Source: Patescibacteria group bacterium
GTDB lineage: Bacteria > Patescibacteriota > JACPGU01
Direction of reading: 5' to 3'
Length of the DNA stretch: 64,000 bases
Assembly: GCA_041675145.1 (NCBI GenBank)
Contig: JBAYUK010000001.1
Coordinates: 312,283 to 376,282 of the forward strand
The notes below the pieces were generated by a model. That model did no database searches. It was given only the letters and a program-made list of their open reading frames with translations, and was not told the DNA's origin. Shown here piece after piece: positions 2,318 through 41,080 of the stretch. Position 1 is the first letter of the stretch. Every line of letters begins with the position of its first letter. Made by a program: the position numbers and the translations under genes.

Positions 2318-3086
2318 TGTTTTCTCCTGAGCTGTCGGTTTAACTCCCCTTGCGGGTGAGTACCGTTTGACCGCTCTGCAGTGGCGGTCAAATACACTCA
2401 GAAGAATCAAGTATCCGTGTCGCCTCTCATTTTCGAAGCGACACGGACTATTAGCTATTAATCGATGAATGAATAGTATCTTGATGTTTATTTGATGAAA
2501 CACAAAAACCTCCCGAAAGAGGAGATTGCATTCTTATAGATACTAATATCTATCTTATATTCTTTCACCATCCTCGAGCGCCCCGGTTCCTGTACCCGGA
2601 CATTGGATTGTGAAAAACTACGGTCATTTGGTTGTTAAGGATTCGCGTTTGTGTGAAACTGGACTTCTTTTGTGAAGACACCACTGGTAGTGAGTATGAG
2701 TAGTTGCAAGCTATCTCCTGATTATAGTTCACAACCAGTTGGCTTCTTCGCAATCCCCTGTGATGGGGAGAAGATATGGGAGCGGTTTATGTCATCTCTT
2801 TTGGTCCGTTACCTCCAAAAGGTTTGTAATGACGACGCGGGGAACGCCCTTTCGTAACTATCGGTATGGCGAGGGAATGGTCATTTGATTAGTCTCCTGA
2901 ACCTTTCAAAGTGACCTGTTTTTGATGTGCGTCTTTGTCTGTCGTATCTGTGTCTCATCCTTATGACACCATTATAGCATAAATAACTAAACTTGTCAAG
3001 CATAATTATCTATAATAAGCCAATATATGCCACTTTACAGGTTAAAAGTCCTTTGAGAAACACCTCTATTTATTGATAATTGGGCT

Positions 3087-8179: not shown

Positions 8180-9643
8180 ATGTATGACCTTTCTTCATTT
8201 TTTGCTCTCTCTCCTCGAACACTCACCCCAGATGAGCAGGCTTTGATCGAAAAAGCCTACCACTTTGGAAAAACCGCTCATGAAGGACAGTTCCGTTTTA
8301 GCGGAGAACCTTACTTCGCCCATGTCTATGCGGCAGCCACCACGCTTCTCAAACTCAATCTCGACGCCGAGACTATCGCCGCTGGATTTTTACATGATGT
8401 TCCGGAAGACACCGCCATTACTCTTGAAGAGATAGAAAAAAAGTTTGGTTCTGAAATTGCCTTTCTCGTTAAAGGCGTGACTAAACTTACCCAGGTACGC
8501 TACCGCCACACCCAAGAAGGACAGATGGAAAATCTGCGTAAAACGTTTCTCGCTATGGCGCAGGACATCCGCGTGGTTCTCATTAAGTTGGCCGACCGGT
8601 TGCACAACATGCAGACTCTCTCTGCAGTACCCAAAGACAAGCAACTGCGCATTGCGCGCGAAACACTGGAAGTGTACGCACCCATTGCGCACCGCCTCGG
8701 GATTGGAGAAATTAAAGGAGAGCTCGAAGACCTAGCCTTTGCCTATGTGTATCCCAAGGAATACGAGAAGCTGCTTACTGAATCTACTCCCTACTATACC
8801 GGTATCAAACAGTACATTGAGCGCATTAAGCCGGAACTAGTAACTGCGCTTAAACAAGAAGGAATTACCCCGCTCTCACTGGACGCCAGAGCTAAGCACC
8901 TCTATTCACTACATAAGAAACTCTTAAAAGAAGGAAAGAATATCGACTCCATCTACGATATTACCGCACTTCGTATTATCGTTGCCTCAATTGACGAGTG
9001 CTATAAAACCCTGGGGCTCATCCACAAGCTCTTCCGTCCACTGCCGGGGCGCATCAAAGACTACATTGCTCTACCAAAACCAAACGGATACCAGAGTTTA
9101 CACACTACCGTTTTCTGTTATGACGGAAAAATTGTAGAAATTCAAATTCGTACTATGCAAATGCACCAGGAAGCAGAAAATGGAATTGCTGCTCACTGGG
9201 CATATGCCGAACATGGTAAGCCCAAGAAGGGCTTTGCTATGAGCCACCATAAATTCAACTGGGTCAAGCAACTTCGCGAATGGCAAAACATGGAACTAGG
9301 AAGCTCTGAGTTTATGGAGTCATTAAAAATAGACTTCTTCAAGAACCGCATCTTCGTTTTTACTCCAACTGGTGATGTTATTGACTTACCAGAGGGAGCA
9401 ACACCAATCGACTTTGCCTACCAGATCCACTCTGATGTGGGAGACCACGCTTCGGGTGCGATGGTGAATAAAAAGATTGCTCAAATCAACACGCCACTGC
9501 AGAACGGAGATATTGTTGAAATCTTAACGCAAAAAAACAAAGAGCCAAATCGTCAGTGGCTTGGCTTTGTGAAAACCTCAGGCGCACGAAGCAAAATTAG
9601 ATCTAAACTAAAAAAGCACGGGTTCTCACTTTTTAAGAAATAG
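8180..9643 (+). CDS. relA: bifunctional (p)ppGpp synthetase/hydrolase (RelA/SpoT homolog, Rsh)
   Basis: HD domain (HDVPEDT), synthetase motifs (SLHTTV, IQIRT) and a TGS domain (IFVFTPTGDVIDLPEGATPIDFAYQIHSDVG). An extended -10 TGATATAAT lies at about 8130. Confidence 0.85.
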   Translation: MYDLSSFFALSPRTLTPDEQALIEKAYHFGKTAHEGQFRFSGEPYFAHVYAAATTLLKLNLDAETIAAGFLHDVPEDTAITLEEIEKKFGSEIAFLVKGVTKLTQVRYRHTQEGQMENLRKTFLAMAQDIRVVLIKLADRLHNMQTLSAVPKDKQLRIARETLEVYAPIAHRLGIGEIKGELEDLAFAYVYPKEYEKLLTESTPYYTGIKQYIERIKPELVTALKQEGITPLSLDARAKHLYSLHKKLLKEGKNIDSIYDITALRIIVASIDECYKTLGLIHKLFRPLPGRIKDYIALPKPNGYQSLHTTVFCYDGKIVEIQIRTMQMHQEAENGIAAHWAYAEHGKPKKGFAMSHHKFNWVKQLREWQNMELGSSEFMESLKIDFFKNRIFVFTPTGDVIDLPEGATPIDFAYQIHSDVGDHASGAMVNKKIAQINTPLQNGDIVEILTQKNKEPNRQWLGFVKTSGARSKIRSKLKKHGFSLFKK

Positions 9644-11728
9644 TTTCTCTATTGTTTCTTTCGTGGTTGGGTTAAGAGAAGACGCTGGTACTGCAGGTTT
9701 TGGAATAAGACTCATAACCTTTGTGGTAAGCGGTAGACCAAAGACCTTTTGCGCCACTACTCCTAGGAGAACTAGTGAAACAGACATCAGAACCAGTGGC
9801 TGGGTAGCAACTGGTTTTTGTGGCTCCTGGGGAATTGGTTTTTCAAAATGCGGCGTGGATGATTGTGCTGCTGTACGCTTGTCTACTACATAAGTAGCAC
9901 TTCCCAAAGCCTCGTCGTCATATGCCAGCTCACCCCTTGCCTCGCCCATGATCACCGGCACATACGAGCTAATGCGTGCCTCCTCTACAACTACGCTACT
10001 TTTTTGCGGCAGAATAGTTGGTGTACTGCCCTTCGGCACCACTACCGGCACACTGGTTTTCGGCACAGAAGGAGCAGTAACTACGTTCGCAGCAGAAGTT
10101 GCCTTGGTTATTGGTTTACTTGTTTCTGCTACCAAAACACTGGTATGTTCCCATTTCCAGGCGCCGTCTTGCAGTACATAGCGCGCACCTTCAAGAGCGT
10201 TCGTGTAAGTTACGCTTGCAGCGCTGTGTTTAGCAGGGTCAAAGAGCGTAATGCTATCCCCTGCATTATTAAGGGATATCTTCGTGTCCTCAGAAAAGAA
10301 TGTGATACGCTCACCCGCGTGGATAATACGATCTGCTTTTATTTCGTAGATCTTCCCTCCACTATCTACCAGTGACCAGTTTTTTAAGTTCGTATCACTC
10401 CCGGTGTTTTCCACTTCAATATATTCGTCGGTTCCATCGGCCCCTTTCGGGTTGGGCAATAGAGAAGATACCCGAATACTGTTTGAAAACTGTGGAGTAC
10501 TAGCCGGGCTAGTCTGTGTTACCACACTACTTGAAGAGCTTGATGAATTCGTGGTAGTGGCATTTGTACTCGTGGTGGTAGTGCTACCGCCTCCGCCACC
10601 AGCCGACTCAACTACCACGGGTACAGGAGCAGTGTTTTTTAATCCGTGACTTACCGGAAAATCCACCACCCACTGTCCGGTACCATCGAGATTCCTCGAG
10701 ATACTTACATCTGTTGTAGTTGCACTGTAGTCGAGCTGATCCTGAACTACCCCATTTGGATTCTTAAGTACCACACTATCTCCCGTGTTATTGAGAATAA
10801 GGCCAGTATCTTTTTTGTAGAGCACCAAGTACCCACCCGCTCCAATGGTGGTTGTGGTAGGGATAGTGTAGGCAGTAGAGCCACCACTCTCGATATCGTC
10901 AAGAGTCCACCCGGATATATCTACCGTTCCAGTATCTGCGTTATATAACTCAACCCACTCGTCGTTGGTATCTGCCGCCAAGTCACCGTCCCAGTCGGTT
11001 ACCGTTCCCGGTGCCGGCATAATCTCGTTTATAAAAATATTGGTATTGTATGTGACCGGCACTGGTGTAACAGGAGCAAGTGCCCCTGGAGGCAATTCAG
11101 AAGCAGTTGTGGTATTTTGTGGTTCTGGTACTACCCGCAGGTCAAAATCACTCACATTACTGTCTGTATCTTCACCATTCCCATGGGTAGCATCTGCTAT
11201 GCCTGGTTTGCGCTCTATACTCTGGCTAGCGGGTGGATTGCTGCCAAATGCGTTGCCTTCAACAAATACATTGGTAGCGAGTCCCCAGGCTACTGAGTCA
11301 ACAATAACTCCGGTATCTGCCGCACCATCGCGCAAGGCTACTCCATTATCTGCAGCCAGCGTTCCCGCAGTTGTTGCGTCAGGCACAACCGTAATACCAG
11401 TAAAACTACTATTTGCCCATAAAAAATACCCGTATGCTGGGATTACGTCACTAGTACCAAAACTTTTCAGTGTAGTGTCACTGCTTCCTCCCGCAGTTCG
11501 CTTCACTAATCGAAACTGATTAAGGGAAACCGCACTGCTCGTGGGATTGTACAACTCCACGAAGTCGTCAGTAGTTGCGGTGCCTGCTATCTGTACCTCC
11601 GAGATAACAAGGTGCGTGGCAGTTGCCGCATGAACTGGAAGAATGTAACAAGGAAGAGACAGAAGAGTCAGGCACAAAGTAAATATAGATAATCCTATGT
11701 TTTTTATTTTTTTATTCATACCAAACAC
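9626..11728 (-). CDS. secreted/surface protein with three lamin-tail domains (LTD) and Ser/Thr-rich linkers
   Basis: Signal peptide MFGMNKKIKNIGLSIFTLCLTLLSLP...HAATA. LTD signatures are HLVISEV...DFVELYNPT, IFINEIMPAPG...EWVELYNAD and LLPNPKGADGTDEYIEVENTG. Poly-S/T runs and a C-terminal hydrophobic segment are present. Confidence 0.7.
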   Translation of the reverse strand: MFGMNKKIKNIGLSIFTLCLTLLSLPCYILPVHAATATHLVISEVQIAGTATTDDFVELYNPTSSAVSLNQFRLVKRTAGGSSDTTLKSFGTSDVIPAYGYFLWANSSFTGITVVPDATTAGTLAADNGVALRDGAADTGVIVDSVAWGLATNVFVEGNAFGSNPPASQSIERKPGIADATHGNGEDTDSNVSDFDLRVVPEPQNTTTASELPPGALAPVTPVPVTYNTNIFINEIMPAPGTVTDWDGDLAADTNDEWVELYNADTGTVDISGWTLDDIESGGSTAYTIPTTTTIGAGGYLVLYKKDTGLILNNTGDSVVLKNPNGVVQDQLDYSATTTDVSISRNLDGTGQWVVDFPVSHGLKNTAPVPVVVESAGGGGGSTTTTSTNATTTNSSSSSSSVVTQTSPASTPQFSNSIRVSSLLPNPKGADGTDEYIEVENTGSDTNLKNWSLVDSGGKIYEIKADRIIHAGERITFFSEDTKISLNNAGDSITLFDPAKHSAASVTYTNALEGARYVLQDGAWKWEHTSVLVAETSKPITKATSAANVVTAPSVPKTSVPVVVPKGSTPTILPQKSSVVVEEARISSYVPVIMGEARGELAYDDEALGSATYVVDKRTAAQSSTPHFEKPIPQEPQKPVATQPLVLMSVSLVLLGVVAQKVFGLPLTTKVMSLIPKPAVPASSLNPTTKETIEKLFLKK

Positions 11729-24216: not shown

Positions 24217-24822
24217 TTATGCATACCCCACAAGATGAATCTGGAGGAGACGTACGGCGAGCCGCTCTTTCACACTTCCACAGCTTGCAATCTGGTCTGT
24301 TTTTTGCAAGATCAGGTGGCGCACATGCGGATAGCGTCTCAGTGGCAGCGCAAACGAAATCAGGTTCAGCTGAGCTAAGTTCTCAGCACAGCCAGCCATT
24401 CCTTCAAAAACTACCTGTTCGCTAACACCCCTCACTTTACGCAAAAGAGCCCAATGTTGATAGGTGCTTGCGTTCACACGCATACCCTCAACGCATTTTT
24501 GCGCAAAGGGCCAATACGCCTGAGCAGCTGCCGTGCAGTGCAAAGCTCTCCACCTATCAAAGGACTGTTCTTTTTGAGGCTTTTCTTCCTCCATTAGAAT
24601 GTTGCAATAACTTTCGGGAAATGCAACAAGAGCAGTGATCTCCCAGAGATTCTTGTGTTGTAGCCACGGGATGAGCCTTGTGGCTATGAAAGGCTCCAAG
24701 CGTGCATGACTGGCCGCAATTTGTTTTGCCAATCTTTCTTGATCCAAATCTTGGACAGGAATCCTGGTGATATTAAAGAGGTTAGTTCCCTTCTTCTGTT
24801 GATACGGGGTGAAATAGAGCAT
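24217..24822 (-). CDS. hypothetical protein (201 aa)
   Basis: ORF with roughly 50% GC. No recognised motifs. Confidence 0.4.
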   Translation of the reverse strand: MLYFTPYQQKKGTNLFNITRIPVQDLDQERLAKQIAASHARLEPFIATRLIPWLQHKNLWEITALVAFPESYCNILMEEEKPQKEQSFDRWRALHCTAAAQAYWPFAQKCVEGMRVNASTYQHWALLRKVRGVSEQVVFEGMAGCAENLAQLNLISFALPLRRYPHVRHLILQKTDQIASCGSVKERLAVRLLQIHLVGYA

Positions 24823-24954
24823 AAAGCCCTCCTTTGTTTTTTAAACTGCAATGGTTCTGCTTATAATCTTACCAGAAAAAAGACAAAATAATAGCCGAAG
24901 AGTGGATGTCCTCTTCGGCATTCGAGTTTCTTGGGAAAGTTTTGCGACCTAGGG

Positions 24955-25302
24955 TCATTCGTTCTGTCCTTTATTTTCTTGTTGCAAGATGGGTTTCCAT
25001 CCGGCATAAGAAAGCGCTTTTTCAACGGAAGCCCAGTCTTCACTTGGATCAACGAAGTAGCTGACCCAGATTTGTATTCCGATCCTGTGGTTGATGGGAT
25101 CTACCCTCGGGTCAATCAGGTTACGGGTGACTTTTGCAAATAAGCTTGTGGGTAAAAACCCAGACTTATTTTCAAAGTCTCCAATACAGATCTCCATCTC
25201 CTTAGGCGGAATAAAATCCAGGGGGATAGTGTTTGTAAAAAAGCGATCCTTTTCGCCGTTTTGTTGGCATCTGAGGTTGAGCATCATCGTTCTTTGTTTC
25301 AT
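24955..25302 (-). CDS. hypothetical protein (115 aa)
   Basis: ORF downstream of the response-regulator gene on the same strand. Confidence 0.35.
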   Translation of the reverse strand: MKQRTMMLNLRCQQNGEKDRFFTNTIPLDFIPPKEMEICIGDFENKSGFLPTSLFAKVTRNLIDPRVDPINHRIGIQIWVSYFVDPSEDWASVEKALSYAGWKPILQQENKGQNE

Positions 25303-25366
25303 CGGGACTTCTCCTTAAACTTTTTTCTGTCGTATCACGGCGGTGTAGAGCTCCTCCTGGGGAGTG

Positions 25367-25794
25367 TTAGACGAGGCCCTGTTCGACGAGCCTAGAGAGA
25401 ACGAACCTGAGGTCACCGCTTCGCTTGCTCACATCGAACTCGAGCTTGAAGTTGGGGTCATTCCAGCCCGGAGAGGTTCTCCTTACTTCATACTGAAACT
25501 CAGCGAAGCCGCTTTGAGAGTTCATCAGAACAACTCCCTCGAACCCTGCTTCGCGCAGCGCCTTCCAGACATCTAGTCCGGAATACTCCTGGTCGAGGTC
25601 AGAATCCATCAGAATCAGCCCTGGGTTAAGCTCCTTAGTGAGTCGGATCGCGTCTTCTTGGGTGGCGGGCATCTCGTCGTGGAGCGTGAAACCCATTTCT
25701 TCTAATCCAGAAGAAAAGCGGAATTGATTAATGACGAGCTGTGGCCTGTCTTCAACAGCCAAGATAAGTCTACTGTTTGGGTTGGGAAGGGTCA
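25367..25794 (-). CDS. single-domain response regulator (CheY-like receiver domain only)
   Basis: Trimmed to MTLPNPNSRLILAVEDRPQLV...LILMDSDL...GLDVWKALREAGF..., the REC-domain D-D-K pattern. No output domain. No histidine kinase nearby. Confidence 0.6.
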
Positions 25795-25978
25795 TTTTCA
25801 AGCCTTTCGTCCACTTAGGACATTTTTTTGACCACAAGTGGCCTGTATATATTATACTATGCTATGAATACTATGTACATATATTTATAGTAAAAACCCT
25901 GTGTAATAAATATATAATGTAAATTTATGCATATTTGTGGTACAATACCAAGAGAAACACACAAACAGGGAGGCACTC

Positions 25979-26492
25979 TTTGGATACGGGACAACTCACA
26001 TTACTTCGCGTTGTGGTTGAACAGCCCACAACAGGAAACATCATCTCTTTAGATAGCACCAAGTTATCACTGAGCATCCGTGTTGTAAAGGAATGGGTAG
26101 ATCAGGCGGAAGCTGCTGCCGCACGCGCTGGGCAAGACCTTACCACCTCCTTTAAGCTCCACCTCCAAGAGGCGTGCAAAGACAGAAAGGAGTCTGTTGA
26201 TTTCCTTAGCCAACACCTCTTGAAGAGACCAAACAATACTCCCCCAAGACCATCTCTGAGCAGTGTAAAGTCAGTGCAACACAAAGAAGATGGCACGAGA
26301 CACACCGAGCTTACAAATAGAGATACGGTGGTTGAATGGCGCTCTCCTGAGCCACGCATTGTTGAAGAAAAAACCATTGCGATTAGCCTTGAGGAAATGG
26401 CTCTTCTTCATGAAACAGAAACACACGCACAAACCGTAAACCTCAGACCCCATACGGTCATATCTATCCTCAATCTCATTGCCAGTCCTTAA
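25979..26492 (+). CDS. hypothetical protein (~171 aa, TTG start)
   Basis: An extended -10 TGgTACAAT at about 25937-25947, then a GGGAGG RBS and a TTG start 6 nt downstream. The annotated ATG at 25935 sits inside the -10 and is unlikely to be the start. Confidence 0.4.
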
Positions 26493-26493
26493 C

Positions 26494-26525
26494 GAGACAG
26501 GTCTCTGTCTCGTCTCTTTTCACCC
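26494..26525 (+). terminator. rho-independent terminator
   Basis: GAGACAG-gtct-CTGTCTC followed by GTCTCTTTTC. Confidence 0.6.
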
Positions 26526-26727
26526 CACAATTCGTGGGGTACTTCTTTGCCCAAAACAAAATATATCCATATCTTGTATAGCAGGGGGTTCTTATAGTTC
26601 TACATGTTGATTACATGAATCTACATCTTGTACCCTATTGACTTTTTTACGGCACTTTGCTACCATATATTGTAGATAGGTTGAAGAGTGCAATACGCAC
26701 TTTTACATTTTACAGGAGGTGCTTCTT

Positions 26728-27108
26728 ATGCCAAGAACACCAACAACCCCTCCCGCTAGACGGGCTTCGTCCAATCGACCGAGAAAAGTCGATTACCGGC
26801 TTCGCAATGCCATTGCGGAGAACAACATCGTGGCAGTACGCGCTGCAATCAAGGCAGGAGCCGACCCAAATCGGCGCATGGATCTTGACTTTCAGACGCC
26901 AACCCACACTGCCGCTTCACTGGATCTACGCGACATTATGATCTGCTTGATCGCTAATGGCGCTGATCCGTACCAACAGGACAAGAGTGAATTTACTCCG
27001 TATCAGCTCGGAAATAACAAAACGAAACAAGTTATTTACGACTACTACGGACAATGCGAAACTCCTCCTATTCCCCCAGGGGCTCCCCTCGCCCTCACTG
27101 GCTCTTAA
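26728..27108 (+). CDS. small ankyrin-repeat protein (~126 aa)
   Basis: AGGAGG RBS. Two or three ANK repeats: LRNAIAENNIVAVRAAIKAGADPN and TPTHTAASLDLRDIMICLIANGADPY. Confidence 0.6.
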   Translation: MPRTPTTPPARRASSNRPRKVDYRLRNAIAENNIVAVRAAIKAGADPNRRMDLDFQTPTHTAASLDLRDIMICLIANGADPYQQDKSEFTPYQLGNNKTKQVIYDYYGQCETPPIPPGAPLALTGS

Positions 27109-27194
27109 CCGAGTCGAAAAGGCCTGTCTTCGGATAGGCCCTTTTCATATCTAAACACACTACCAATCGTGTGTTTTTTGTTTATACTTACACT

Positions 27195-27617: not shown

Positions 27618-27676
27618 CACATAGCTTGCGAATCGTCTAATTTACGTCTATAATACGTCTATATTAATGAGACGAT

Positions 27677-28705
27677 ATGTTTGACCCACACTACACTATT
27701 ACACCGAAGCTACTCGCTAATATTAAGAAAATTACGGTTCTTATCGAGAAGCTTAACAGTGAGGTATACCCCACTGTTGTTTTGGCAGAATTAAAGAGAA
27801 ATGCTTTTTCTCTTTCTTCGTACTCTTCAACTAGCATTGAAGGAAACCCCCTACCCCTATCTGAGGTGAAAATAATACTTAAGAATAATCCAAAGATAAT
27901 TCGGGACAGCGAAAGAGAAGTAATTAACTACAATAACGCCCTAAAAGAGCTGGATATGGTAGTTCGTGAAAGAAAGGGCACTCTCAATTTGGCCACTATT
28001 CTTAATACTCAGAAGATAGTAACCAATAAATTAATAGGCCCGGAGAATAGCGGTAAACTCAGAACTACTCAGGTATATGTAAAGAATCCTAAGCTTAGAA
28101 AAATTATATATATGGCGCCACAGGCGCAAGACATACGTCACCTACTAGATGACCTCATACAGTTCGTTAACTCAAGCAAGGATATAATTGACCCACTTAT
28201 TTTGGCCGGTATATTTCACAAACAATTCGTTATTGTCCATCCATTTACTGATGGCAATGGAAGAACAGCTCGCCTTATAACTAAGCTCGTGCTCGCTAGT
28301 ATGGGGCTTAATACCTTTAGTCTCTTTAGTTTTGAGAACTACTACAATCAACACATTGAAAAGTATTTTAATACCGTTGGAGTTGTAGGCCACTACTATG
28401 ACGAAAAAGATACAATAGACTTCACTCCCTGGTTAGAATACTTTACTGACGGCATCATAGACGAGCTACTAAGAGTACGTGCTATCCTTAAAAAACAAAA
28501 AAAATCTTCTGAAACAGTTCTTAAACCGCACCACGAAACTATTTTGTACCACATCACAAAACATGGGTTTATTACTGACCGTGAGTACGCTCGTATCACT
28601 TCCCGCGCTAAGCCCACTCGCCACCTCGACTTCAAAAAGCTCATTAACCTCGGTCTTATACAAAAGAAAGGGAACGGGAGAGCAACCATCTATATTGTAC
28701 GATAA
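27677..28705 (+). CDS. fic: Fic-family protein (adenylyltransferase/AMPylase type) with an N-terminal inhibitory motif and a C-terminal wHTH
   Basis: The Fic motif HPFTDGNGRTARL is present. The inhibitory helix motif STSIEGN fits (S/T)xxxE(G/N). Confidence 0.85.
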   Translation: MFDPHYTITPKLLANIKKITVLIEKLNSEVYPTVVLAELKRNAFSLSSYSSTSIEGNPLPLSEVKIILKNNPKIIRDSEREVINYNNALKELDMVVRERKGTLNLATILNTQKIVTNKLIGPENSGKLRTTQVYVKNPKLRKIIYMAPQAQDIRHLLDDLIQFVNSSKDIIDPLILAGIFHKQFVIVHPFTDGNGRTARLITKLVLASMGLNTFSLFSFENYYNQHIEKYFNTVGVVGHYYDEKDTIDFTPWLEYFTDGIIDELLRVRAILKKQKKSSETVLKPHHETILYHITKHGFITDREYARITSRAKPTRHLDFKKLINLGLIQKKGNGRATIYIVR

Positions 28706-28753
28706 AAAAGAAATATAGATTAATGGGATGAATATCGCGTATAGTATCTCTAT

Positions 28754-29407
28754 ATGACAGACCTTTTTATATCCCAACCTGACTTTCTTGTAACCTTTGT
28801 GGTCTTTGTACTAAGTATTACCCTGCATGAGGCAGCTCATGCATGGGCTACTACTCGTTTTGGTGACACAGATGCTAAAGAATCTGGGAGACTTACTCTC
28901 AACCCCATCGCTCACTTTGAAGCAACCGGGATTATCACCTTTCTGCTGCTCGGTTTTGGCTGGGGCAAACCGGTACCTACTAGCGGTAACCTTTCCAAAC
29001 TAGATACCGTAAAGGTTGCCCTTATTGGTCCGGTAACTCATTTAGTGCTCGCCTTCTTCTTTGGAATCCTAACGGCTGTTAATATCCTCCTCATTAATCG
29101 TGGTATCTATACCTTTACTGCATATTCCTGGATTTTCTCACTTGGCTTTTCTCTCAATATTACTTTGATGTGTGTAAACCTCATCCCTCTCCCACCACTA
29201 GATGCTTCCCATATCCTGGAGATGCTCCTACCTAAAGAGAAAGCGCAAACTTTTTTCCGTTTTGCGCCCTACGCCCTACTTGCTTTGTTGCTATTCCAAG
29301 TAGTAACGGGTAACTTATTTCTACTCACCCCCTTCTTTACATTTGTATATACTGTTGGTAATTCCCTACTTCATGGTATACTTGCTTTATTCAGCATCGG
29401 TTTCTAG
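28754..29407 (+). CDS. site-2 protease family (M50-like) membrane metalloprotease
   Basis: HEAAHA (HExxH) lies in the first TM, and LDASH is downstream. Polytopic membrane protein. Confidence 0.7.
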
Positions 29408-29422
29408 AAAAACAAACACAAC

Positions 29423-30346
29423 ATGGAAATAACTTTTTTGTACTGGGCAATAGTCATTGGCGCCGGCGTGGCGTTCTTTTTCGTGTACCGTAAAAAAGAA
29501 CCCGGGAGCGGCCTGAAGACTGAAGGGTTCATGAAAGACCTAACCGCCCTGGCCCGTGAAGGCAAACTCGATCCTGTTATAGGACGAACACAAGAAATAG
29601 AGCGATCTATCCAGATCCTCACGCGGCGCTCTAAGAACAATCCGATTCTTATCGGTGAAGCCGGAGTCGGTAAAACCGCTATAGTAGAGGGTCTTGCCCA
29701 GCGTATAATAGCAGGTGAAGTTCCTGAAGAGATTATTGGTAAACGAGTCCTCTCGGTAGATATTACCGCGATGCTCTCGGGCACCAAATACCGTGGAGAG
29801 TTTGAAGACCGCATGAATCACTTACTTACAACCGTACAGGAAGCAAACCGCGGGATTATTCTATTTATCGATGAGATTCACCAGTTAGTTGCAGCCGGTG
29901 CCTCTGAAGGAGCTATAAAAGCCGAGGACATTATCAAACCAGCTCTCTCTCGTGGAGACTTACAGCTTATCGGAGCCACTACTCCTCCTGAGTACAATAC
30001 CTATATCAAGCATGATGTTACGCTAGAGCGTCGTTTTCAGCCCGTGATTGTAGGAGAGCCAAATAAAGCAGATACTCTCGCAATCCTTAAAGGTATCGCT
30101 CCAAAGTACGAGTCGTATCATAATGTTATTTTAGAAAAAGGCGTCCTTGAGACAATTGTTGTAAAATGTGCTACACTACTCTCAAATCGTCGGTTTCCGG
30201 ACAAGGCGATCGACATTCTAGACGAGGCGTGTGCCCGTGTAAAGCTTGCTACTATTGGAGAGAAGAGTACCAAGACCAAGCCACGCGTCACCAAATCCGA
30301 TGTATTGGCAGTTATTTCTTACTATCGCAATATCAAAAAAATATAA
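29423..30346 (+). CDS. membrane-anchored single AAA+ module homologous to ClpB/ClpC NBD1, with no N-domain, M-domain or NBD2
   Basis: N-terminal TM, then [47 protein letters not shown] (Walker A), [10 protein letters not shown] (Walker B) and RRFQPV sensor. The ORF ends right after the D1 small subdomain. Confidence 0.7.
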
Positions 30347-30359
30347 CTAAACTAATGTT

Positions 30360-30977
30360 ATGGCAAAAAAGACTCTCACCAGAACCAAAACCCGTGTCAC
30401 CACCAAGACTCTTACCTTGGTTGCATTGGGTTTTGTAGCAGCAGCGGCACTTTACGGTGTTGTTGTGACTCAAAAAAAAGGAATAGTAAGTATCAGGTAT
30501 CCGCAACCGTACACCACCCCTATTACCAAGCCGTATACAAACCCATATACGAGCCCATACACCCCACCGACACCAAAGCCCGTCCTTCCTGACCTCACCT
30601 TCATGAATTCAACCGTTACTATGCTCGGAGCTGGTGGTGGACTGTATCCATTCCTGGGAGTCCTCATTAAAAACGATACCGAGATTATTAAGCCACAGGG
30701 CAGATCTATGCCGGCCTTTATGATATATGTATACATCAACAACAGCCGTTCCCCACTCACTCTCAGCAGCACATCATCAAAGCGCGCTACCACCGAGACT
30801 GAACTCTTAAATAAGATTAATCTCTCAGACTATATTGGTCAAACCATTAAGGTGAAATTCGTAATTGACCCAGGCAACTATGTATCAGAATCAAATGAGA
30901 GAAACAACACCATGGAACAGACTATTACTGTTCCTAAGACTAGCAACTTCCAGTTTACTGGAACCAAAGTCTACTAG
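30360..30977 (+). CDS. membrane-anchored protein with PY-rich repeats and a CARDB-like domain
   Basis: N-terminal TM, then PYTTPITKPYTNPYTSPYTPP repeats and a C-terminal ESNERNN motif typical of CARDB. Confidence 0.5.
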   Translation: MAKKTLTRTKTRVTTKTLTLVALGFVAAAALYGVVVTQKKGIVSIRYPQPYTTPITKPYTNPYTSPYTPPTPKPVLPDLTFMNSTVTMLGAGGGLYPFLGVLIKNDTEIIKPQGRSMPAFMIYVYINNSRSPLTLSSTSSKRATTETELLNKINLSDYIGQTIKVKFVIDPGNYVSESNERNNTMEQTITVPKTSNFQFTGTKVY

Positions 30978-32903: not shown

Positions 32904-34043
32904 TTATGCGTATTGAACCAGTTTCTTGTGCCATACATTCGACAACGTACCCAGCGCGGCACAGACTACAATACAGTAGGCAATCCACCCTATTACCGGG
33001 ATAAGAGCTAGAATAAAGAGTAGCACCATGCCAATAAAGGCAGTGCGCCACGAAATCGCAACCTTCTTATCTTTTCGTAGCTTCTGGATAACTACTGATC
33101 CGAGAAATACTGCCGCAAAGAGATTCGCAAACATCATCATAAGGATATATGTGAGGAGCAGAATCACTGCAATCGGCATTCCGATCATAGTCACCATAAG
33201 GATTGCCACCACAATCGGCGTCACAACGGCCACCAAGAACCCGCGACCCGCTGACTGCCAAAAGTTCTTCTGAGTAGTTTCAACTATCTCAAGTGACTTC
33301 TTTGGCATGAATGAAACGAGCACAATAGCAGTTACGGCAAATGCAAGGAGCTTCATGAGGGTAAGAAGAGACAGTGAAGCAACAACATTACCCGCCCTGT
33401 TATGAGTACGAGACACAGGGTTCTGAGTAGTAGTACCCTTAATAACTGCCCCCTGAGAAATTATAATCGGGCTCGTAGAACTATACGTTAGGTTGCCGGC
33501 TATCACCGCACTTGAACCGATTGTAATACTCTCTGCGTTAATCTGGGTGTTTCCTGTCACCATACCGTTAATGACAACATTGCCACCATCTACGGTAAGC
33601 GTTCCTTTTACAGGAGCATCCAGTGTTACCTCTCCACCAGCAAGGCGAGCATCTCCTCCGATATCTGCTGTCGAGATCACATGAATGGTGCCACCCGCGA
33701 GAAGAGCGTCTCCGGTGACAGGACCAGAAACAGTGACATTGCCACCAGCGGCGCGAAGATCGTCGCCGATTATTGCTCCGATTGTAACCGTACCTCCAGC
33801 TGCCATCACATCCTGGCTCACGTTTCCTGAGATAAATAGATTACCGCCAGCCGCTACGAAGTCGCCAACGATATCACCTAAGCTAGCAATATTACTACCC
33901 GCTACGTACACATCATTAACAATCTTTTCTTCCGTCTTAATAGCGACCGTGTCGCCCCCTCGAACATCAGCAGCTAAGATAGCCGTTGGAAGTGCGAGCA
34001 TTACGATCAAGGACGTAAGACTTACGAGGTACTTTTTTTGCAT
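32904..34043 (-). CDS. secreted beta-helical repeat protein (bactofilin/DUF4097-like repeats) with a C-terminal 4-TM anchor
   Basis: Signal peptide, then about 18-residue repeats AAGGNVTVSGPVTGDALLAGG..., then a hydrophobic C-terminal domain. Confidence 0.5.
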   Translation of the reverse strand: MQKKYLVSLTSLIVMLALPTAILAADVRGGDTVAIKTEEKIVNDVYVAGSNIASLGDIVGDFVAAGGNLFISGNVSQDVMAAGGTVTIGAIIGDDLRAAGGNVTVSGPVTGDALLAGGTIHVISTADIGGDARLAGGEVTLDAPVKGTLTVDGGNVVINGMVTGNTQINAESITIGSSAVIAGNLTYSSTSPIIISQGAVIKGTTTQNPVSRTHNRAGNVVASLSLLTLMKLLAFAVTAIVLVSFMPKKSLEIVETTQKNFWQSAGRGFLVAVVTPIVVAILMVTMIGMPIAVILLLTYILMMMFANLFAAVFLGSVVIQKLRKDKKVAISWRTAFIGMVLLFILALIPVIGWIAYCIVVCAALGTLSNVWHKKLVQYA

Positions 34044-36085: not shown

Positions 36086-36212
36086 TACGACAGTATAGCA
36101 GAACTAGCTGGTTTTTTCCTAGTATGTAAGAAACACTACACTAGCGGTCTTGTTTTACAACCCCTTGGCGTGATGTATACTGGATAGTATTATACAGAAC
36201 AAACCTTCTCCT

Positions 36213-36662
36213 ATGAAACCATACATCCCCGCTCTTGGTATTGCCGGTATTGTTCTTGTTGCCTTTACTACCTGGCATTTCATAAATCCTGAAACAGATG
36301 ACTTAACGCCAGATCCTGTACCAGCCCCTACTCAGACCAATGTGCAGCCAGAAGAAAAACCAGCACAAACCAATACAGCTACCATAGACACCAGCTCACA
36401 GCCACAGATTCCAACGAGCACACAAAAGACCTATACTATGGCAACTGTCTCTCAACACAACACAGCTACTGACTGCTGGATGGTTATTGACGGCGCAGTA
36501 TACGACCCGACTTCTTTTATCCCGCAACATCCAGGCGGAGACCAAATTGTGCTCGGTTGTGGCAAGGATGCTACGAGTTTAGTAACGGGACAACGAAAGC
36601 ACATGAAGCCCCAGGCTCAGGCTATCTTTGATGCATATAAAATAGGGACACTTGCTCAATAA
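36213..36662 (+). CDS. membrane-anchored cytochrome b5-like heme-binding domain protein
   Basis: N-terminal TM and a Pro/Thr/Gln linker. The C-terminal cyt-b5 motif reads DCWMVIDGAVYDPTSFIPQHPGGDQIV. Confidence 0.65.
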   Translation: MKPYIPALGIAGIVLVAFTTWHFINPETDDLTPDPVPAPTQTNVQPEEKPAQTNTATIDTSSQPQIPTSTQKTYTMATVSQHNTATDCWMVIDGAVYDPTSFIPQHPGGDQIVLGCGKDATSLVTGQRKHMKPQAQAIFDAYKIGTLAQ

Positions 36663-36663
36663 C

Positions 36664-37968
36664 ATGAACCTTCGCCCACTCTTCTACGCACTACTGATAG
36701 CAAACCTAGGTACAACCCTCTTCTTGTGGTGGACACATTCTTCGTTCTTTATGACAAGTGGCAACACTGGCCAGATTTTAATTGGCCTTGGACGACTCAT
36801 GGGACTACTGGCTGAGCTGGGAATCCTTGTTCAACTCGTCTTGATTGGACGCATTAGAGTAGTCGAACAAGAGTATGGCTTTGATATGTTAAACCGCCTA
36901 CACCGAGTACTCGGCTTCTACCTGCTTGCAGCACTCATTACCCACCCACTTTTCTTGGTTACAGGATACAGTATCGTAAACCACACTGCTTTTGCCCCGC
37001 AACTCGTAACTTTTTTTACGAGCTGGGAAGACGTATTTGCTGCCTTTCTTGGTCTTTGTGTACTCCTTATTGCAATCAGCACTTCAGTAGCTATTGTTCG
37101 ACGCAAGCTCCGGTATGAGACCTGGTACTTTATACACTTCTTAATCTACCTAGCCATTGCACTGTTCTTCAGTCACCAAGTAAAGAGCGGTGATCTTACT
37201 ACCGGGTCTGCCATGTACTACTGGTACGCAGTCAACTTCACTATCTTCGGTCTTGTTCTTGTCTACCGGTTTATGCGTCCACTCTATCTGCTCTGGGTTC
37301 ACCGTTTTGAAGTTGAGCGTATCGTACAGGAAAGTGCGGTAGTCACTTCTGTATATATTACGGGACGCAACCTTGCTCGTTTTATAATTCAGCCTGGACA
37401 GTTTGCTCACATTAGCTTTTTAGCTCGAGATACATGGTACACTCATCCATTTTCTTTTTCTCAGGTTAATAACGGCAAGAACCTTCGTCTCTCTATTAAG
37501 GCTCTGGGAGACTTCACCGCACAAATAGCACGTATTACGCCCGGCACTCCGGTACTGATCGACGGGCCGTTTGGTGTCTTTACGCAGAAAAAAAATGTGA
37601 CCGGTAAATACCTCTTTATTGCCGGAGGTATTGGCATTACACCAATTCGCGCCCTTGCAGAATCACTGTCCTTAAAGAACGCAGACCAAAGACTCTTATA
37701 TAGCATTCGCAACATGGACGAGCTCGTCTTTGAAGAAGAACTTAAGCAGCTCAACATACCCACAAGCATCATAACCTCACAGTCTCATGAGAACGGATAT
37801 GAACATGGACATATTGATACAGAAAAAATCCAGCGTCTCGCGCCGGACTTTATAACACGAGATATCTATGTCTGTGGTCCACCTACTATGATTGAGACGG
37901 TTTGCACAGCTCTTGCTACCCTAGGAGTACCCAAAAACCAGATTCACTACGAGCGATTTAGTTACTAG
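36664..37968 (+). CDS. NOX/ferric-reductase family flavocytochrome (FRD TM domain + FAD-binding + NAD(P)-binding)
   Basis: Bis-His TM helices with 13-residue spacing (HFLIYLAIALFFSH). HPFSF is the FAD motif. GGIGITP and a CGP motif mark the NAD(P) domain. Start taken at the ATG right after the cyt-b5 stop. Confidence 0.75.
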   Translation: MNLRPLFYALLIANLGTTLFLWWTHSSFFMTSGNTGQILIGLGRLMGLLAELGILVQLVLIGRIRVVEQEYGFDMLNRLHRVLGFYLLAALITHPLFLVTGYSIVNHTAFAPQLVTFFTSWEDVFAAFLGLCVLLIAISTSVAIVRRKLRYETWYFIHFLIYLAIALFFSHQVKSGDLTTGSAMYYWYAVNFTIFGLVLVYRFMRPLYLLWVHRFEVERIVQESAVVTSVYITGRNLARFIIQPGQFAHISFLARDTWYTHPFSFSQVNNGKNLRLSIKALGDFTAQIARITPGTPVLIDGPFGVFTQKKNVTGKYLFIAGGIGITPIRALAESLSLKNADQRLLYSIRNMDELVFEEELKQLNIPTSIITSQSHENGYEHGHIDTEKIQRLAPDFITRDIYVCGPPTMIETVCTALATLGVPKNQIHYERFSY

Positions 37969-38305
37969 TCTTCTCGTTTTTTTTACGCTTTGATCGCATA
38001 CTCACTTCATATGACTCCTCGAGTAGTTCGAGGATTTTTTCATGCTCCTGGATAGTCTTGCCTGAAACCAACCAATAACTCATAGCATACGGTTTGCCGC
38101 CGTGTCCTTGGTATGTAAAAGGGGTGCTTTTCATCTTTTCGTATCGTTCCCTGTTTGTACTATCTACCTTCAAGTACAGCTGGCTATCGACTATGATTCC
38201 GCAGATTACCCCACGCAGATACACCCCATATCCACCAAACATGGCTTTAGTTGTGATCTCTGGATGAAGCGCCTGAATAGCTATAACAAACTTCCCTACA
38301 GCCAT
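37958..38305 (-). CDS. TfoX N-terminal domain-containing protein
   Basis: KAMFGGYGVYLRGVICGIIVDSQLYLKVD...YAMSYWLV follows the TfoX_N pattern. Confidence 0.5.
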   Translation of the reverse strand: MAVGKFVIAIQALHPEITTKAMFGGYGVYLRGVICGIIVDSQLYLKVDSTNRERYEKMKSTPFTYQGHGGKPYAMSYWLVSGKTIQEHEKILELLEESYEVSMRSKRKKNEKTSN

Positions 38306-38853
38306 AAGAGCATTATTCCTGCCATCACCGTCATGAGTAAGTCTTCGAGGAGCGTAACGGTGGTCATGGGTACATTAATCTTAGTACCCAGACAGGCGCA
38401 GCGGAACGGTTTTTTAGATTGGAGAGCAAGCAACACCCCGACACTAGAGATACCCATCACGAGAAATGTCACCCAGTCGGTTACTCGTGGCATTAAGTGA
38501 AAAAGGTAGTTTACTCCTAGCCATAGTTCAATGAAGGGATAAAAGAACCCATAGCCGGATACTTTTTTAGCAACTACATCGTACGTTGCGTACGCTTGGG
38601 CAAACCCCTTCAGGTCGAGTAACTTAAATACCGAGAAGGTGACAAAAAATACCCCCATGAAAATACGAAAAACGATTAACGCGTCCCATAGGCCGGTAAC
38701 GGCTGACCATATAAGCGTTATGAGTACCACTCCGCCGAGAATGGCAAGGAGCGGGGTAATACTTGGTTTTGCTTTCATCATCTGTTCGTGTTCAAACTTA
38801 TTCATTTCTTCCATGGTATATATATTACTAGTATTAATGTGCAAAGAAAGCAA
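38296..38853 (-). CDS. DoxX/MauE-like polytopic membrane protein
   Basis: Four TM segments and a C-terminal Cys pair (RCACLG). Overlaps both flanking genes, consistent with an operon. Family call is tentative. Confidence 0.4.
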   Translation of the reverse strand: MLSLHINTSNIYTMEEMNKFEHEQMMKAKPSITPLLAILGGVVLITLIWSAVTGLWDALIVFRIFMGVFFVTFSVFKLLDLKGFAQAYATYDVVAKKVSGYGFFYPFIELWLGVNYLFHLMPRVTDWVTFLVMGISSVGVLLALQSKKPFRCACLGTKINVPMTTVTLLEDLLMTVMAGIMLLWL

Positions 38854-41080
38854 GGTAGCCTAATGCAAGATACGACAAAATAACAACTGCACCCAAAAGC
38901 CCTCCCCAGGTCATAAACTTCTTCCTTCCAGCAATCCTGATCCACCAGTATAACTGACCTACAACTACTAATGTTGCTACAGTGAAGAGTAGATATATAG
39001 GCAGAGTGTGTCTGAGTAACGGATTAACTAGTACAAAGTGAAAAATAGCCGACATCCAGGCAAAGTAGGCTACTCGGTGTATGAGCTTCCAGCGCGGGTA
39101 GGTAAGCTTTGCGACCATCCAATCAGATGAGGTAAGTGCCATTATCATAAAGCCCGTTAATGCTAAGGAGCCGAATACGACCGGGTTCTTAAGTGGATTC
39201 AGTGACCAGTAGACTGTTGCGAAATCCCACCCATACATCAATGCGTAGACAGATAATGCATGTAGGGTAATAAAAAGCACCCCTACTACTCCTGTATAGC
39301 GACGCACTCGCCAGTGGTCAGCCAGTGCTGGGATGAACTTGAACACAATACTCATCAGCAATGCCGCCCCAATCATGGTGGCGCCAGTTAAGGCGAATGA
39401 ACGGATAAGGGAGGACGCAAGGTTTCCCGGTACTAGATAAAAGAACTGGAGACAAAACTGCACTGCCCAAAACAAGATACCAGCACCAAGAACTGTTAAA
39501 ATAAGTTTTGTGTAGCGTACTGGTGGAGCAGGTAGGTTACTTGGACTGTTATTAACTTCCCCATCCTCTATGCCCACCTCAATACTATCCCCTACTATTC
39601 GTACTGTATATATTTTTTGAGAATATTTGGCAGGCCCTGTAACTACTTTACCGTCTGTGATACTGAACTTTGATCCATGCCACGGACAGGTAATAGTTTT
39701 ACCGTCAAAATCTCCGTCACACAACGGTCCACCCATATGTGAACAGGCATTATCCATAGCCACATATATATTGTCTACTGTGAATAAGGCGAGCTTTTTA
39801 TCTCCTACCGTGATACACCTCTTATTTTCCTTAGTGAACTCAGATACCTTAGCCACTGCCACCCAATGTGTTCCTTTACTACTCGTACTAGAGTTCATAG
39901 TAGTTGTGTTATGTGAAATTGAAATATTATTTCTTTGAGGGTTCAAGATACTAGATACTTTACTGTTCTTGCCTGCTATTAAATAAGCAATGGTCTTGCC
40001 TGCAAGAGCGCTAAAGACGAGCCCCTGACCACCAAAACCAGTAATAACGTGTACATTAGGCACATGAGGATGAGTAAAAACATAGGGCACCTCATCAGGA
40101 GTAACATACAAGCTACCAGACCAAAAATTGGTAATAGCAGTATACCCAGGCACGTGGGCATCTAAATACGGGGTTAGTGTAGTGTAGGCATCCTGGGACT
40201 TGATCTTATCGTACGAAATATCTGCCCCGCCCAGGATCAAGGTATGGGGATTTATCATTCTGAAATAAAAGTATGGGTGATCTACATCCCAGTACTGCTC
40301 AGCACCGATCGGCTGTGTATGGTACTGTGCTGCCAGCACATATGTGAGACGCGGGACAACCAGACTTGAAAGCTCTGGAAACAACGTATCGTCTGGCTTA
40401 CCAGTTGCTACCACTATATGCTTTGCCACTACCTTCCCTTTAGCTGTTCTGACTTCATTACCAGCAACAGATACTACCCCGGACTCTTCAAAGAGTAACA
40501 CACCTTTCTTAGCTAGAAGACTCGCTAGTGCGGATATAAACTTACGAGGATGAAATCTACCCTCTTTGTCATACCGGATAGCTGAGGCAAAAACATCCCC
40601 GTTCTTACCTTCAACCAAAGAAGTGTTCTTATCTACGGTACGCACAAGATCCCACTCCTTCAAGAGACCAGGGTCCTTTTTAGTATATGAGATCCAGTAG
40701 GACTGGTTAGACAGAAAGTCGCAGCGTATTTTGTTATCCGCTATTATCTTAAAGAGTTCTTTCTGAGCCCCATACAGTTCGAGAGCAAGATCAGTAACAA
40801 ACTTCTCTCCATGAAGCTTCTTTAAAGCAATAAGAGAGGTATCTAGTGGACGGGTCAAAAATCCAGTGGTTGCCCCCGTATCTCCGTTGGCAAGAAGGCC
40901 TTTTTCCAGCAATACCACCGAGAACCCTGACTCAACTAAATACCAGGCGCTCATAAGGCCCACTATACCGCCACCGATCACTACCACATCAGCAGCAACC
41001 TCTTTCTTAAGTGGTCTATAGATGAGATCATCCGGTTCGTCCTCATACCAGACCGGAAGAGTATTGATGTCTTGTTGCAT
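38834..41080 (-). CDS. three-domain fusion: FAD-dependent oxidoreductase (DAO-like) + Rieske [2Fe-2S] + C-terminal 6-TM ferric-reductase-like heme domain
   Basis: VVVIGGGIVGLMSAWYL is the FAD Rossmann fold. CSHMGGPL...CPWHGSKF is the Rieske CxH...CxxH. The C-terminal 6 TM carry His pairs (LIHRVAYFAWMSAIFH). Confidence 0.7.
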   Translation of the reverse strand: MQQDINTLPVWYEDEPDDLIYRPLKKEVAADVVVIGGGIVGLMSAWYLVESGFSVVLLEKGLLANGDTGATTGFLTRPLDTSLIALKKLHGEKFVTDLALELYGAQKELFKIIADNKIRCDFLSNQSYWISYTKKDPGLLKEWDLVRTVDKNTSLVEGKNGDVFASAIRYDKEGRFHPRKFISALASLLAKKGVLLFEESGVVSVAGNEVRTAKGKVVAKHIVVATGKPDDTLFPELSSLVVPRLTYVLAAQYHTQPIGAEQYWDVDHPYFYFRMINPHTLILGGADISYDKIKSQDAYTTLTPYLDAHVPGYTAITNFWSGSLYVTPDEVPYVFTHPHVPNVHVITGFGGQGLVFSALAGKTIAYLIAGKNSKVSSILNPQRNNISISHNTTTMNSSTSSKGTHWVAVAKVSEFTKENKRCITVGDKKLALFTVDNIYVAMDNACSHMGGPLCDGDFDGKTITCPWHGSKFSITDGKVVTGPAKYSQKIYTVRIVGDSIEVGIEDGEVNNSPSNLPAPPVRYTKLILTVLGAGILFWAVQFCLQFFYLVPGNLASSLIRSFALTGATMIGAALLMSIVFKFIPALADHWRVRRYTGVVGVLFITLHALSVYALMYGWDFATVYWSLNPLKNPVVFGSLALTGFMIMALTSSDWMVAKLTYPRWKLIHRVAYFAWMSAIFHFVLVNPLLRHTLPIYLLFTVATLVVVGQLYWWIRIAGRKKFMTWGGLLGAVVILSYLALGYLAFFAH

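Follow-up and report, generated by a model that had tools for sequence, protein, structure and literature searches.

A membrane-anchored, D1-only member of the Hsp100 lineage forms a conserved protein family in Patescibacteria

In a 64,000-nucleotide stretch of DNA from a Patescibacteria group bacterium (contig JBAYUK010000001.1; the whole stretch is called the window below), one gene encodes a 307-residue protein in which a short linker joins an N-terminal transmembrane (TM) helix to a complete Hsp100 D1 AAA+ module, large and small subdomains included. Comparison with its homologs indicates that this open reading frame (ORF) is a functional gene of a widespread and conserved family of the tiny-celled Patescibacteria, referred to here as TM-D1. 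We favor, with some reserve, the view that TM-D1 proteins are hexameric threading ATPases at the membrane face, which would combine an Msp1/FtsH-like layout with descent from the D1 module of Hsp100. The protein is identical to the public sequence P0001, which comes from a 428-kb contig and is labelled "AAA family ATPase [Patescibacteria group bacterium]."

The gene and the parts of its product lie at the following positions of the window, where invariance refers to an alignment of 40 family members and conservation to 94 clusters of homologs, both described below.

29423-30346, + strand: gene for the TM-anchored AAA+ ATPase, 307 residues (Pfam AAA 4e-12 and AAA_lid_9 6e-19)
29426-29497, + strand: membrane anchor, residues 2-25 (a helix in the AlphaFold2 model; hydrophobic segment at residues 3-21; Kyte-Doolittle mean 2.25)
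29654-29677, + strand: Walker A GEAGVGKT, residues 78-85 (G78, G81, G83, K84 and T85 invariant; kept in 94/94 clusters)
29780-29806, + strand: pore loop 1 GTKYRGEFE, residues 120-128, with KYRG at residues 122-125 and the tyrosine Y123 (all nine residues invariant; kept in 94/94)
29858-29875, + strand: Walker B ILFIDE, residues 146-151 (D150 and E151 invariant; kept in 94/94)
30029-30034, + strand: arginine fingers R203 and R204 within LERRFQPV, RRFQ being residues 203-206 (invariant; kept in 94/94)
30062-30343, + strand: D1 small (lid) subdomain, residues 214-307, including the last strand and helix (AAA_lid_9 6e-19)

The segment at residues 3-21 is the only hydrophobic one in the protein. 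TM helix and linker together take up residues 1-33, and the basic residues RKK follow the helix directly; by the positive-inside rule the ATPase domain should be cytoplasmic, in an N-out/C-in topology. Within that domain, pore loop 1, with the substrate-gripping tyrosine Y123, aligns with the pore loop of ClpC, and a sensor-1 motif (GATT) occupies residues 184-187.

Where the module begins and ends was seen from alignments with ClpB, which an earlier note on this DNA had proposed as a check, and with its relatives. The NCBIfam ClpB model covers the protein by model positions 158-399 of 853 only (1e-103) and the ClpA model by positions 168-434 of 734, with scores below the respective cutoffs (348 bits vs 1232 for ClpB and 315 vs 993 for ClpA). 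ClpC and ClpB sequences from the PDB align to residues 34-277 and stop at ClpC residue 406, which is the start of the M-domain coiled coil, while the alignment with ClpA, which has no M-domain, extends to residue 298 (ClpA residue 430). Direct comparison of the C-termini showed that the tail of the 307-residue protein matches V(T)xxDIxxVVSxWTGIP, the element that closes the D1 small subdomain. In ClpB and ClpC this element comes after the M-domain of ~65 residues; in the 307-residue protein it comes ~12 residues past the point at residue 277 where the alignments break off. Since this element is present, the chain holds the whole D1 module and stops at the D1/D2 junction.

The predicted structure has the same outline. 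An AlphaFold2 model built from 40 family sequences (pLDDT 89.9, pTM 0.82) has a helix at residues 2-25, a low-confidence linker at residues 25-32, an AAA+ fold and a C-terminal helix at residues 291-306. Foldseek matches the model to D1 of ClpC, ClpB, ClpC1 and ClpA with E ~1e-28 and query TM-scores of 0.77-0.80, at a root-mean-square deviation of ~2-3 Å over ~270 columns.

No other part of an Hsp100 protein was found in or around the gene. When the full-length ClpC of 847 residues was compared to the whole window by tblastn, only D1 matched (ClpC 175-413 = 29528-30247), and no frame held an N-domain, M-domain or D2. When N-domain, M-domain and D2 pieces were compared by phmmer to all ORFs within 6-8 kb of 25 homologous loci, there was again no match. 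Pfam detected in the protein itself neither Clp_N (PF02861) nor the M41 peptidase (PF01434) nor the periplasmic FtsH_ext domain, the chain ending after the AAA lid; and with D2 absent, the ClpP-docking IG(F/L) loop is not present. The earlier note's description of the ORF as cleanly ending thus stands, and the frameshifted second module for which it had suggested searching downstream is found neither in the window nor in the 25 loci. The same note had credited the gene with a good ribosome-binding site, which we could not confirm: no Shine-Dalgarno-like motif occurs in the 25 nucleotides before its start (CGGTTTCTAGAAAAACAAACACAAC). Since most large ORFs of the window have no such motif (it precedes just 12 of 38), its lack is no argument against the gene.

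Homologs with the same architecture, for which the earlier note had suggested a search in other genomes of the candidate phyla radiation, are numerous. Among the best 120 homolog clusters at 90% identity, 94 contain proteins of 303-365 residues in which an N-terminal hydrophobic helix precedes D1, as in the 307-residue protein; the other clusters are fragments of ordinary ClpB or ClpC with Clp_N. All 94 retain Walker A, G[TA]KYRGEFE, Walker B, sensor-1, both arginine fingers and the PDKAID lid motif, and several members lie on contigs of 0.2-1.2 Mb. The 40-member alignment, at ~50% mean identity, has 60 invariant columns, including K84, T85, Y123, D150, E151, T187, R203 and R204. This pattern indicates strong purifying selection on the residues that bind and hydrolyze ATP, on the arginine fingers acting in trans and on the pore-loop tyrosine.

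A scan of GTDB species genomes added 18 short TM-anchored genes (317-335 residues) in metagenome-assembled genomes of Patescibacteria, Parcubacteria and Kerfeldbacteria. These account for 18 of the 80 loci obtained; the rest were drawn in by the shared word FPDKAIDI and served as a control. They comprise ~60 full-length genes of 750-870 residues from Acidobacteriota, Alistipes, Treponema and others, so that short and full-length genes fall into two clearly distinct classes. A family profile run against 1.84 billion representatives gave 12,966 matches below 1e-30, with ~10 of the best 150 being of family length; this profile cannot tell the TM-D1 family from ordinary Hsp100 D1 and gave no census. 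Named members are from the "Patescibacteria group," Parcubacteria or Kerfeldbacteria. A spread beyond Patescibacteria was considered on account of seven loci titled "uncultured Gammaproteobacteria bacterium (binchicken...)" (L009, L010, L016, L020, L024, L030 and L042) and rejected. Their titles look wrong, since both proteins and synteny are near-identical to Patescibacteria loci (L024 has nearly the same protein as L017 and identical synteny). The earlier note's remark that a TM helix joined to a first AAA+ module is not a standard architecture is therefore right for Hsp100 in general and wrong within Patescibacteria, where this architecture is standard.

The family may well go back to one event. 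When the D1 regions of 39 short and 28 full-length proteins were placed in a neighbor-joining tree, the short ones formed one bipartition with a bootstrap of 75/100. Furthermore, the family has three signature residues: D169 where N is canonical, T200 where A is canonical, and an inserted R143. Each occurs in 96-98% of members and in none of 33 full-length D1 modules. Because of the bipartition and the signature residues, a single origin is moderately supported. The window protein carries every feature of the family: a length within 300-365 residues, the TM helix, D1 only, D169, T200 and the inserted R143.

Set beside known machines, TM-D1 shares its module with one group and its layout with others. 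It is 50-58% identical to D1 of the class I Hsp100 proteins ClpC, ClpB, ClpA and ClpC1 over ~245 residues (phmmer 2e-81 to ClpC 6em9), with a shared fold and with identical Walker A and B, pore loop, sensor-1, double arginine finger and PDKAID motifs. However, class I Hsp100 proteins have two AAA+ modules where TM-D1 has one, and a Clp_N domain where it has a TM helix; TM-D1 is thus without D2, the ClpP-docking loop and the main motor. It is also without the M-domain coiled coil that ClpB and ClpC carry in the D1 small subdomain, in which it resembles ClpA, and without their DnaK- or MecA-binding elements. MecA acts on ClpC, and DnaK on ClpB, via the N-domain and the M-domain, both of which are absent here. 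Since the second ring, the N-domain, the M-domain and the ClpP loop are all missing, TM-D1 genes should not be annotated as ClpB or ClpC.

The layout is that of Msp1/ATAD1: a single TM anchor at the N-terminus, joined by a short linker to one AAA+ module of ~300 residues, with conserved pore-loop aromatics and the entry face toward the membrane, an orientation that for TM-D1 would follow from the position of its anchor. Msp1 nevertheless belongs to another AAA+ lineage. All 44 PDB sequence matches at E<=1e-20 and the best 50 Foldseek matches are Hsp100 proteins, none of them Msp1; what TM-D1 has in common with Msp1 is a convergent layout. FtsH and YME1L are likewise N-terminally anchored single AAA+ rings on the cytoplasmic or matrix face, but FtsH has an M41 peptidase and a periplasmic FtsH_ext domain, which TM-D1 lacks, and two TM helices instead of one. 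A canonical FtsH is encoded separately in at least one genome with a TM-D1 member. Skd3 (human CLPB), ClpX and HslU show that a single Hsp100-type ring can act as an autonomous unfoldase or disaggregase; these rings are built on a D2/HCLR-type module, whereas TM-D1 is built on D1 and anchored in the membrane.

In the window, the gene is the third of four neighboring ORFs, which the earlier note had placed correctly and in which every motif it quoted was found. The other three, and a promoter-like match ahead of them, are as follows.

27626-27654, + strand: sigma-70-like promoter match (TTGCGA, 17 nucleotides, TATAAT), upstream of the Fic gene
27677-28705, + strand: Fic gene, 342 residues (Pfam Fic 2e-17)
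28754-29407, + strand: M50 gene, 217 residues (Peptidase_M50 2e-8, 34.2 bits vs cutoff 27.2)
30360-30977, + strand: CARDB gene, 205 residues (Pfam CARDB 7e-6, 26.6 bits vs cutoff 22.7)

The gaps between the four ORFs, all on the + strand, are 48, 15 and 13 bp, in line with the tight gene packing across the whole window, and none of the four is preceded by a Shine-Dalgarno-like motif. Because the gaps are short, no terminator-like site was found in any of the three and a sigma-70-like match lies upstream, the row is probably co-transcribed in this genome. The match at 27626-27654 is a possible start of the four-gene transcript, and weak evidence for it, as promoter-like sites are as numerous in the region as in shuffled sequence. 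The row itself is a lineage-specific juxtaposition and not a conserved system.

The Fic protein has its catalytic motif HPFTDGNGRTAR at residues 188-199, fitting HxFx(D/E)GN(G/K)RxxR, and an inhibitory motif, STSIEG, at residues 51-56, which precedes the Fic core within the protein and fits (S/T)xxxE(G/N). Since STSIEGN aligns column for column with the inhibitory TVAIEGN of FICD (alignment 2e-20), we assign the protein by its motifs to the self-inhibited class II AMP-transferases of FICD/SoFic type; the earlier note's proposal that it carries its own inhibitory motif and needs no separate antitoxin agrees with this alignment. Its winged-helix-like C-terminal tail (Pfam HVO_A0114 1e-5) is shared with SoFic, while the TPR and TM region of FICD is missing. 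SoFic models match it at 1.1e-48 over positions 58-350 of 361 (PADLOC) and at 76.6 bits vs a cutoff of 550 (NCBIfam equivalog). The gene could have been inserted between the dUTPase and M50 genes as a stand-alone defense against phages. A reading of the whole row as a multi-gene defense system was examined with PADLOC and rejected: Fic alone matches (as SoFic), the ATPase gives a marginal TRIP13 match (7e-5), and M50 and CARDB give none. We saw no sign of joint action of Fic and the ATPase, and the two appear functionally independent; no Fic gene beyond that of the window lies near any TM-D1 homolog in the loci examined.

The M50 protein, with HEAAH (HExxH) at residue 25, an NxxPxxxxD(G)-type motif at residue 142 in which Ala replaces Gly, four hydrophobic segments and neither a PDZ nor a CBS domain, has the makeup of a minimal site-2-protease-type metalloprotease. 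The CARDB protein has a TM segment at residues 18-36, a Pro/Thr/Tyr-rich linker and a CARDB-like beta-sandwich (PF07705, residues 117-186 of 205), and is predicted from this order to sit at the cell surface, anchored by its N-terminus and with the Pro/Thr/Tyr-rich part as a stalk.

We surveyed the neighborhoods of 30 loci with TM-D1 family members, 8 from the subgroup of the window (the window, L001, L005, L006, L088, the P0010 locus, L089 and L090) and 22 others. Within the subgroup, the sole local microsynteny consists of the ATPase gene, a weakly related surface protein and a convergent Wzy_C/TPR gene, shared by the window, L005 and L006; the gene downstream of the ATPase in L005 is a weak relative (1e-4) of the CARDB protein, and no CARDB gene as such was seen at any locus but that of the window. 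Otherwise the neighbors mostly differ: an unknown gene with DUF456, ComF-like with Bro-N, RuvA with Spherulin4, a divergent TilS-FtsH pair, Dockerin/EF-hand, or superoxide dismutase. Outside the subgroup, 19 of 22 loci have a CorA-family gene immediately upstream in the same orientation, and in a twentieth it is two genes away. The features in question are these.

L002-L004, L010-L018, L020-L022, L024, L030, L042 and L091: CorA directly upstream of the TM-D1 gene (e.g., L017:7032-7997)
L002:652-3201, - strand, as an example: VirD4/TraG-like coupling protein of the conserved block (DUF8128, T4SS-DNA_transf and TrwB_AAD_bind; ~850 residues)
L002-L004, L009, L010, L017, L020, L021, L024, L030 and L091: the block VirD4-like...CorA-AAA-CysS...DnaJ/DnaK

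In this wider block, VirD4-like (- strand) is followed by small ORFs, CorA, the ATPase gene and CysS, and then by DnaJ/DnaK (- strand). The CorA stop and the ATPase start often overlap or are 1-4 bp apart. The adjacency is kept where CysS is inverted (L011-L013, L016 and L022) and is also seen in L042, the branch that diverges most, and in L091, which the tree places on the side of the window. It is therefore probably an ancestral arrangement that the window's subgroup has lost: no CorA gene was found in any of its 8 loci, nor in the rest of the 64-kb window. L008 and L009 likewise have none close by, and the same holds for the ~60 full-length ClpC control loci. About 11 of the 19 CorA-like neighbors are without the GMN signature, which is replaced by FAARLPHTP, FGLMKG, LGLGLNN or FAIEVDG, and many of these proteins may no longer be Mg2+ channels. 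We take the CorA-family protein as the best candidate client or partner of the TM-D1 ATPase.

The mechanism that we propose starts from a ClpA/B/C-type Hsp100 whose N-domain is replaced by one TM helix, with no M-domain and with a chain that stops at the D1/D2 junction. Six copies would form a single D1 ring on the cytoplasmic face of the membrane, a hexameric ring being expected because arginine fingers need a subunit interface to act across. The TM anchors might aid assembly of the ring, as in FtsH/YME1L; they promote hexamerization of YME1L (PMC5095350). The anchor stands in for the N-domain at the N-D1 linker, and ~10-15 residues separate it from D1; the face by which substrates enter Hsp100, the N-terminal one, would therefore be turned toward the membrane. 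Driven by ATP, the pore-loop tyrosines would there grip membrane-proximal or membrane-embedded polypeptides, and the ring would pull, unfold or extract them into the cytoplasm, much as Msp1 is described (PMC12793716) as a membrane-anchored AAA+ protein that extracts membrane proteins. The ring would have no protease of its own and no loop for docking ClpP. The ancestral site of its gene would be directly downstream of the CorA-family gene, a link lost in the lineage of the window. The notion of a novel membrane-associated unfoldase, voiced in the earlier note, thus remains the best reading of the protein; that it works with the adjacent site-2 protease does not, as discussed below.

Several points weigh against this mechanism. 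In the double-ring relatives the stronger motor is D2, with D1 serving chiefly processivity, as in ClpA (PMC7568338); a ring made of D1 only may therefore be a weak unfoldase. The tree of D1 regions is a neighbor-joining tree with a biased sample of full-length comparators and moderate support. Isolated D1 of ClpB or ClpC is not known to form hexamers well, and the TM-D1 hexamer is a prediction. The 8 subgroup loci share no conserved neighbor, so genomic context gives no clue to the client of the window's ATPase. The CorA linkage could be functional or merely inherited synteny, since CysS, DnaJ and the VirD4-like gene are in the same block, and many of the CorA-linked loci are closely related, representing ~13 non-redundant lineages; we treat it as a lead. 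Finally, a search of one literature library on the TM-D1 family and on Clp in Patescibacteria found no description and no experimental work. Mentions of ClpB and ClpC in a paper on TM7x were set aside because they refer to the host.

Among the other explanations, that the gene is a degenerate remnant of a full-length ClpB or ClpC after a deletion or frameshift, as the earlier note had allowed, is almost certainly wrong. A match confined to positions 158-399 of the ClpB profile and an ORF with no Shine-Dalgarno-like motif upstream could be expected of a remnant, but most genes of the window lack this motif as well, and 94 clusters of the same length carry the same TM anchor and have lost none of the catalytic motifs. 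The module is cleanly bounded, down to the last element of the D1 lid, the AlphaFold2 model is confident, and no trace of D2, M-domain or N-domain was found in any frame. Neither an in-frame continuation into a second module nor a want of homologs with the same truncation was seen, and the earlier note's alternative view, a TM anchor fused to a complete first AAA+ module that is no pseudogene fragment, is the one borne out by the domain alignments and the conserved clusters. More can be said for a split Hsp100, in which the D1 ring docks on a separately encoded ring or protease (a standalone D2-like ATPase, ClpX, FtsH or ClpP) to give a two-tier membrane machine: the protein ends exactly at the D1/D2 junction, complementation of separately made NBD1 and NBD2 fragments of ClpB has been reported, and one relative lies 1.2 kb from a divergent tilS-ftsH pair. 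We still regard it as improbable, since no D2-like ORF occurs within 6-8 kb in 25 loci or in the 64-kb window, the ClpP-binding loop belongs to D2 and is absent, and the proximity to FtsH was seen once.

Two further explanations tie the ATPase to a neighboring gene. Together with the adjacent M50 protein it could form a two-gene, FtsH-like unit of membrane proteolysis, with the unfoldase feeding the intramembrane protease. In its favor, the two genes share a strand and are separated by 15 bp that contain no terminator, each encodes a membrane protein, and L006 has an M50 ortholog (1e-33) 2.9 kb from the ATPase gene, beyond the Wzy_C/TPR gene. However, M50 adjoins the ATPase gene in 1 of 30 loci, that of the window; no M50 gene was found within 4-8 kb in the other 6 subgroup loci or in any of the 22 remaining ones; and genes are tightly packed everywhere in this genome. 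We know of no site-2 protease that needs an AAA+ partner, and we consider such a unit very improbable. Alternatively, instead of being a general unfoldase, TM-D1 could serve specifically to regulate or assemble the CorA-family protein that most lineages encode upstream of it, the copy in the window being a relocated ortholog or a paralog acting on a CorA-like protein encoded elsewhere. The adjacency in 19 of 22 loci, with stops and starts that often overlap, speaks for this, as do its survival through rearrangements and in the most divergent branch, its absence beside canonical ClpC, and the loss of GMN from ~11 of 19 CorA-like proteins, which suggests a changed role. Against it, the whole block from VirD4-like to DnaJ is syntenic, so that the linkage may be inherited, the subgroup loci, L008 and L009 have no CorA nearby, and no precedent is known; on balance we hold it to be unlikely. 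Returning to the membrane-face threading ATPase, a bolder version is possible, though we find it doubtful: TM-D1 would be an independently evolved bacterial counterpart of Msp1/ATAD1, a single-ring extractase of proteins of the cytoplasmic membrane, ancestrally coupled to a CorA-like pentamer that in many lineages has lost its Mg2+ selectivity motif, and in the reduced Patescibacteria it might partly replace the missing double-ring Hsp100 in membrane proteostasis or disaggregation.

The rest of the window encodes mostly housekeeping functions (transketolase, Rpe, RelA/SpoT, purine genes, BipA, DinB, superoxide dismutase, RuvB and YchF), and no Clp, Lon, FtsH or ClpP gene was found in it. A LOOT RNA (Rfam RF03000) is present at full length at 60693-60820 on the + strand (79.6 bits vs a gathering score of 46.4). 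The region 36200-41080 contains redox genes unusual for Patescibacteria, and 24800-27150, ahead of the Fic gene, has only short, mostly unannotated ORFs. The GC content is 0.555 at positions 1-2000 and ~0.43-0.50 elsewhere in the window, and an ORF of 380 residues at 1361-2503 (- strand) has no Pfam match. Two further proteins, one with Lamin Tail Domain repeats and one with DUF8173, are probably envelope or cytoskeleton-like.

9626-11728, - strand: 700-residue protein with three Lamin Tail Domain repeats
25367-25837, - strand: faint response-regulator-like ORF
26719-27108: ankyrin-repeat ORF, 129 residues
27121-27140: terminator-like hairpin
32904-34043, - strand: 379-residue DUF8173 protein with a Gly/Ala-rich repetitive N-terminal half and C-terminal TM segments
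Ahead of 36652, in the 36200-41080 region: Cyt-b5 protein, 149 residues
36652-37968: ferric-reductase/NOX-like protein (Ferric_reduct, FAD_binding_8 and NAD_binding_1)
38834-41080, - strand: DAO and Rieske protein, 748 residues, preceded by TfoX_N and MauE-like genes

Hsp100/Clp proteins are textbook double-ring unfoldases, in which D1 is usually seen as an auxiliary motor and is not thought to work alone. TM-D1 sequences are already in databases under generic names, while for the family itself we found no description, and its genes, variously labelled "ClpC" or "AAA family ATPase," are not to be counted as evidence of a Clp protease or a ClpB disaggregase. A natural, strongly conserved and phylum-wide family that is D1-only and tied to the membrane would amount to a natural experiment on the lone D1 ring, and the recurrent pairing with a CorA-like protein offers a concrete, testable candidate partner. 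The family would also point to an unrecognized form of protein remodelling at the membrane face in the very large and almost uncultured Patescibacteria.

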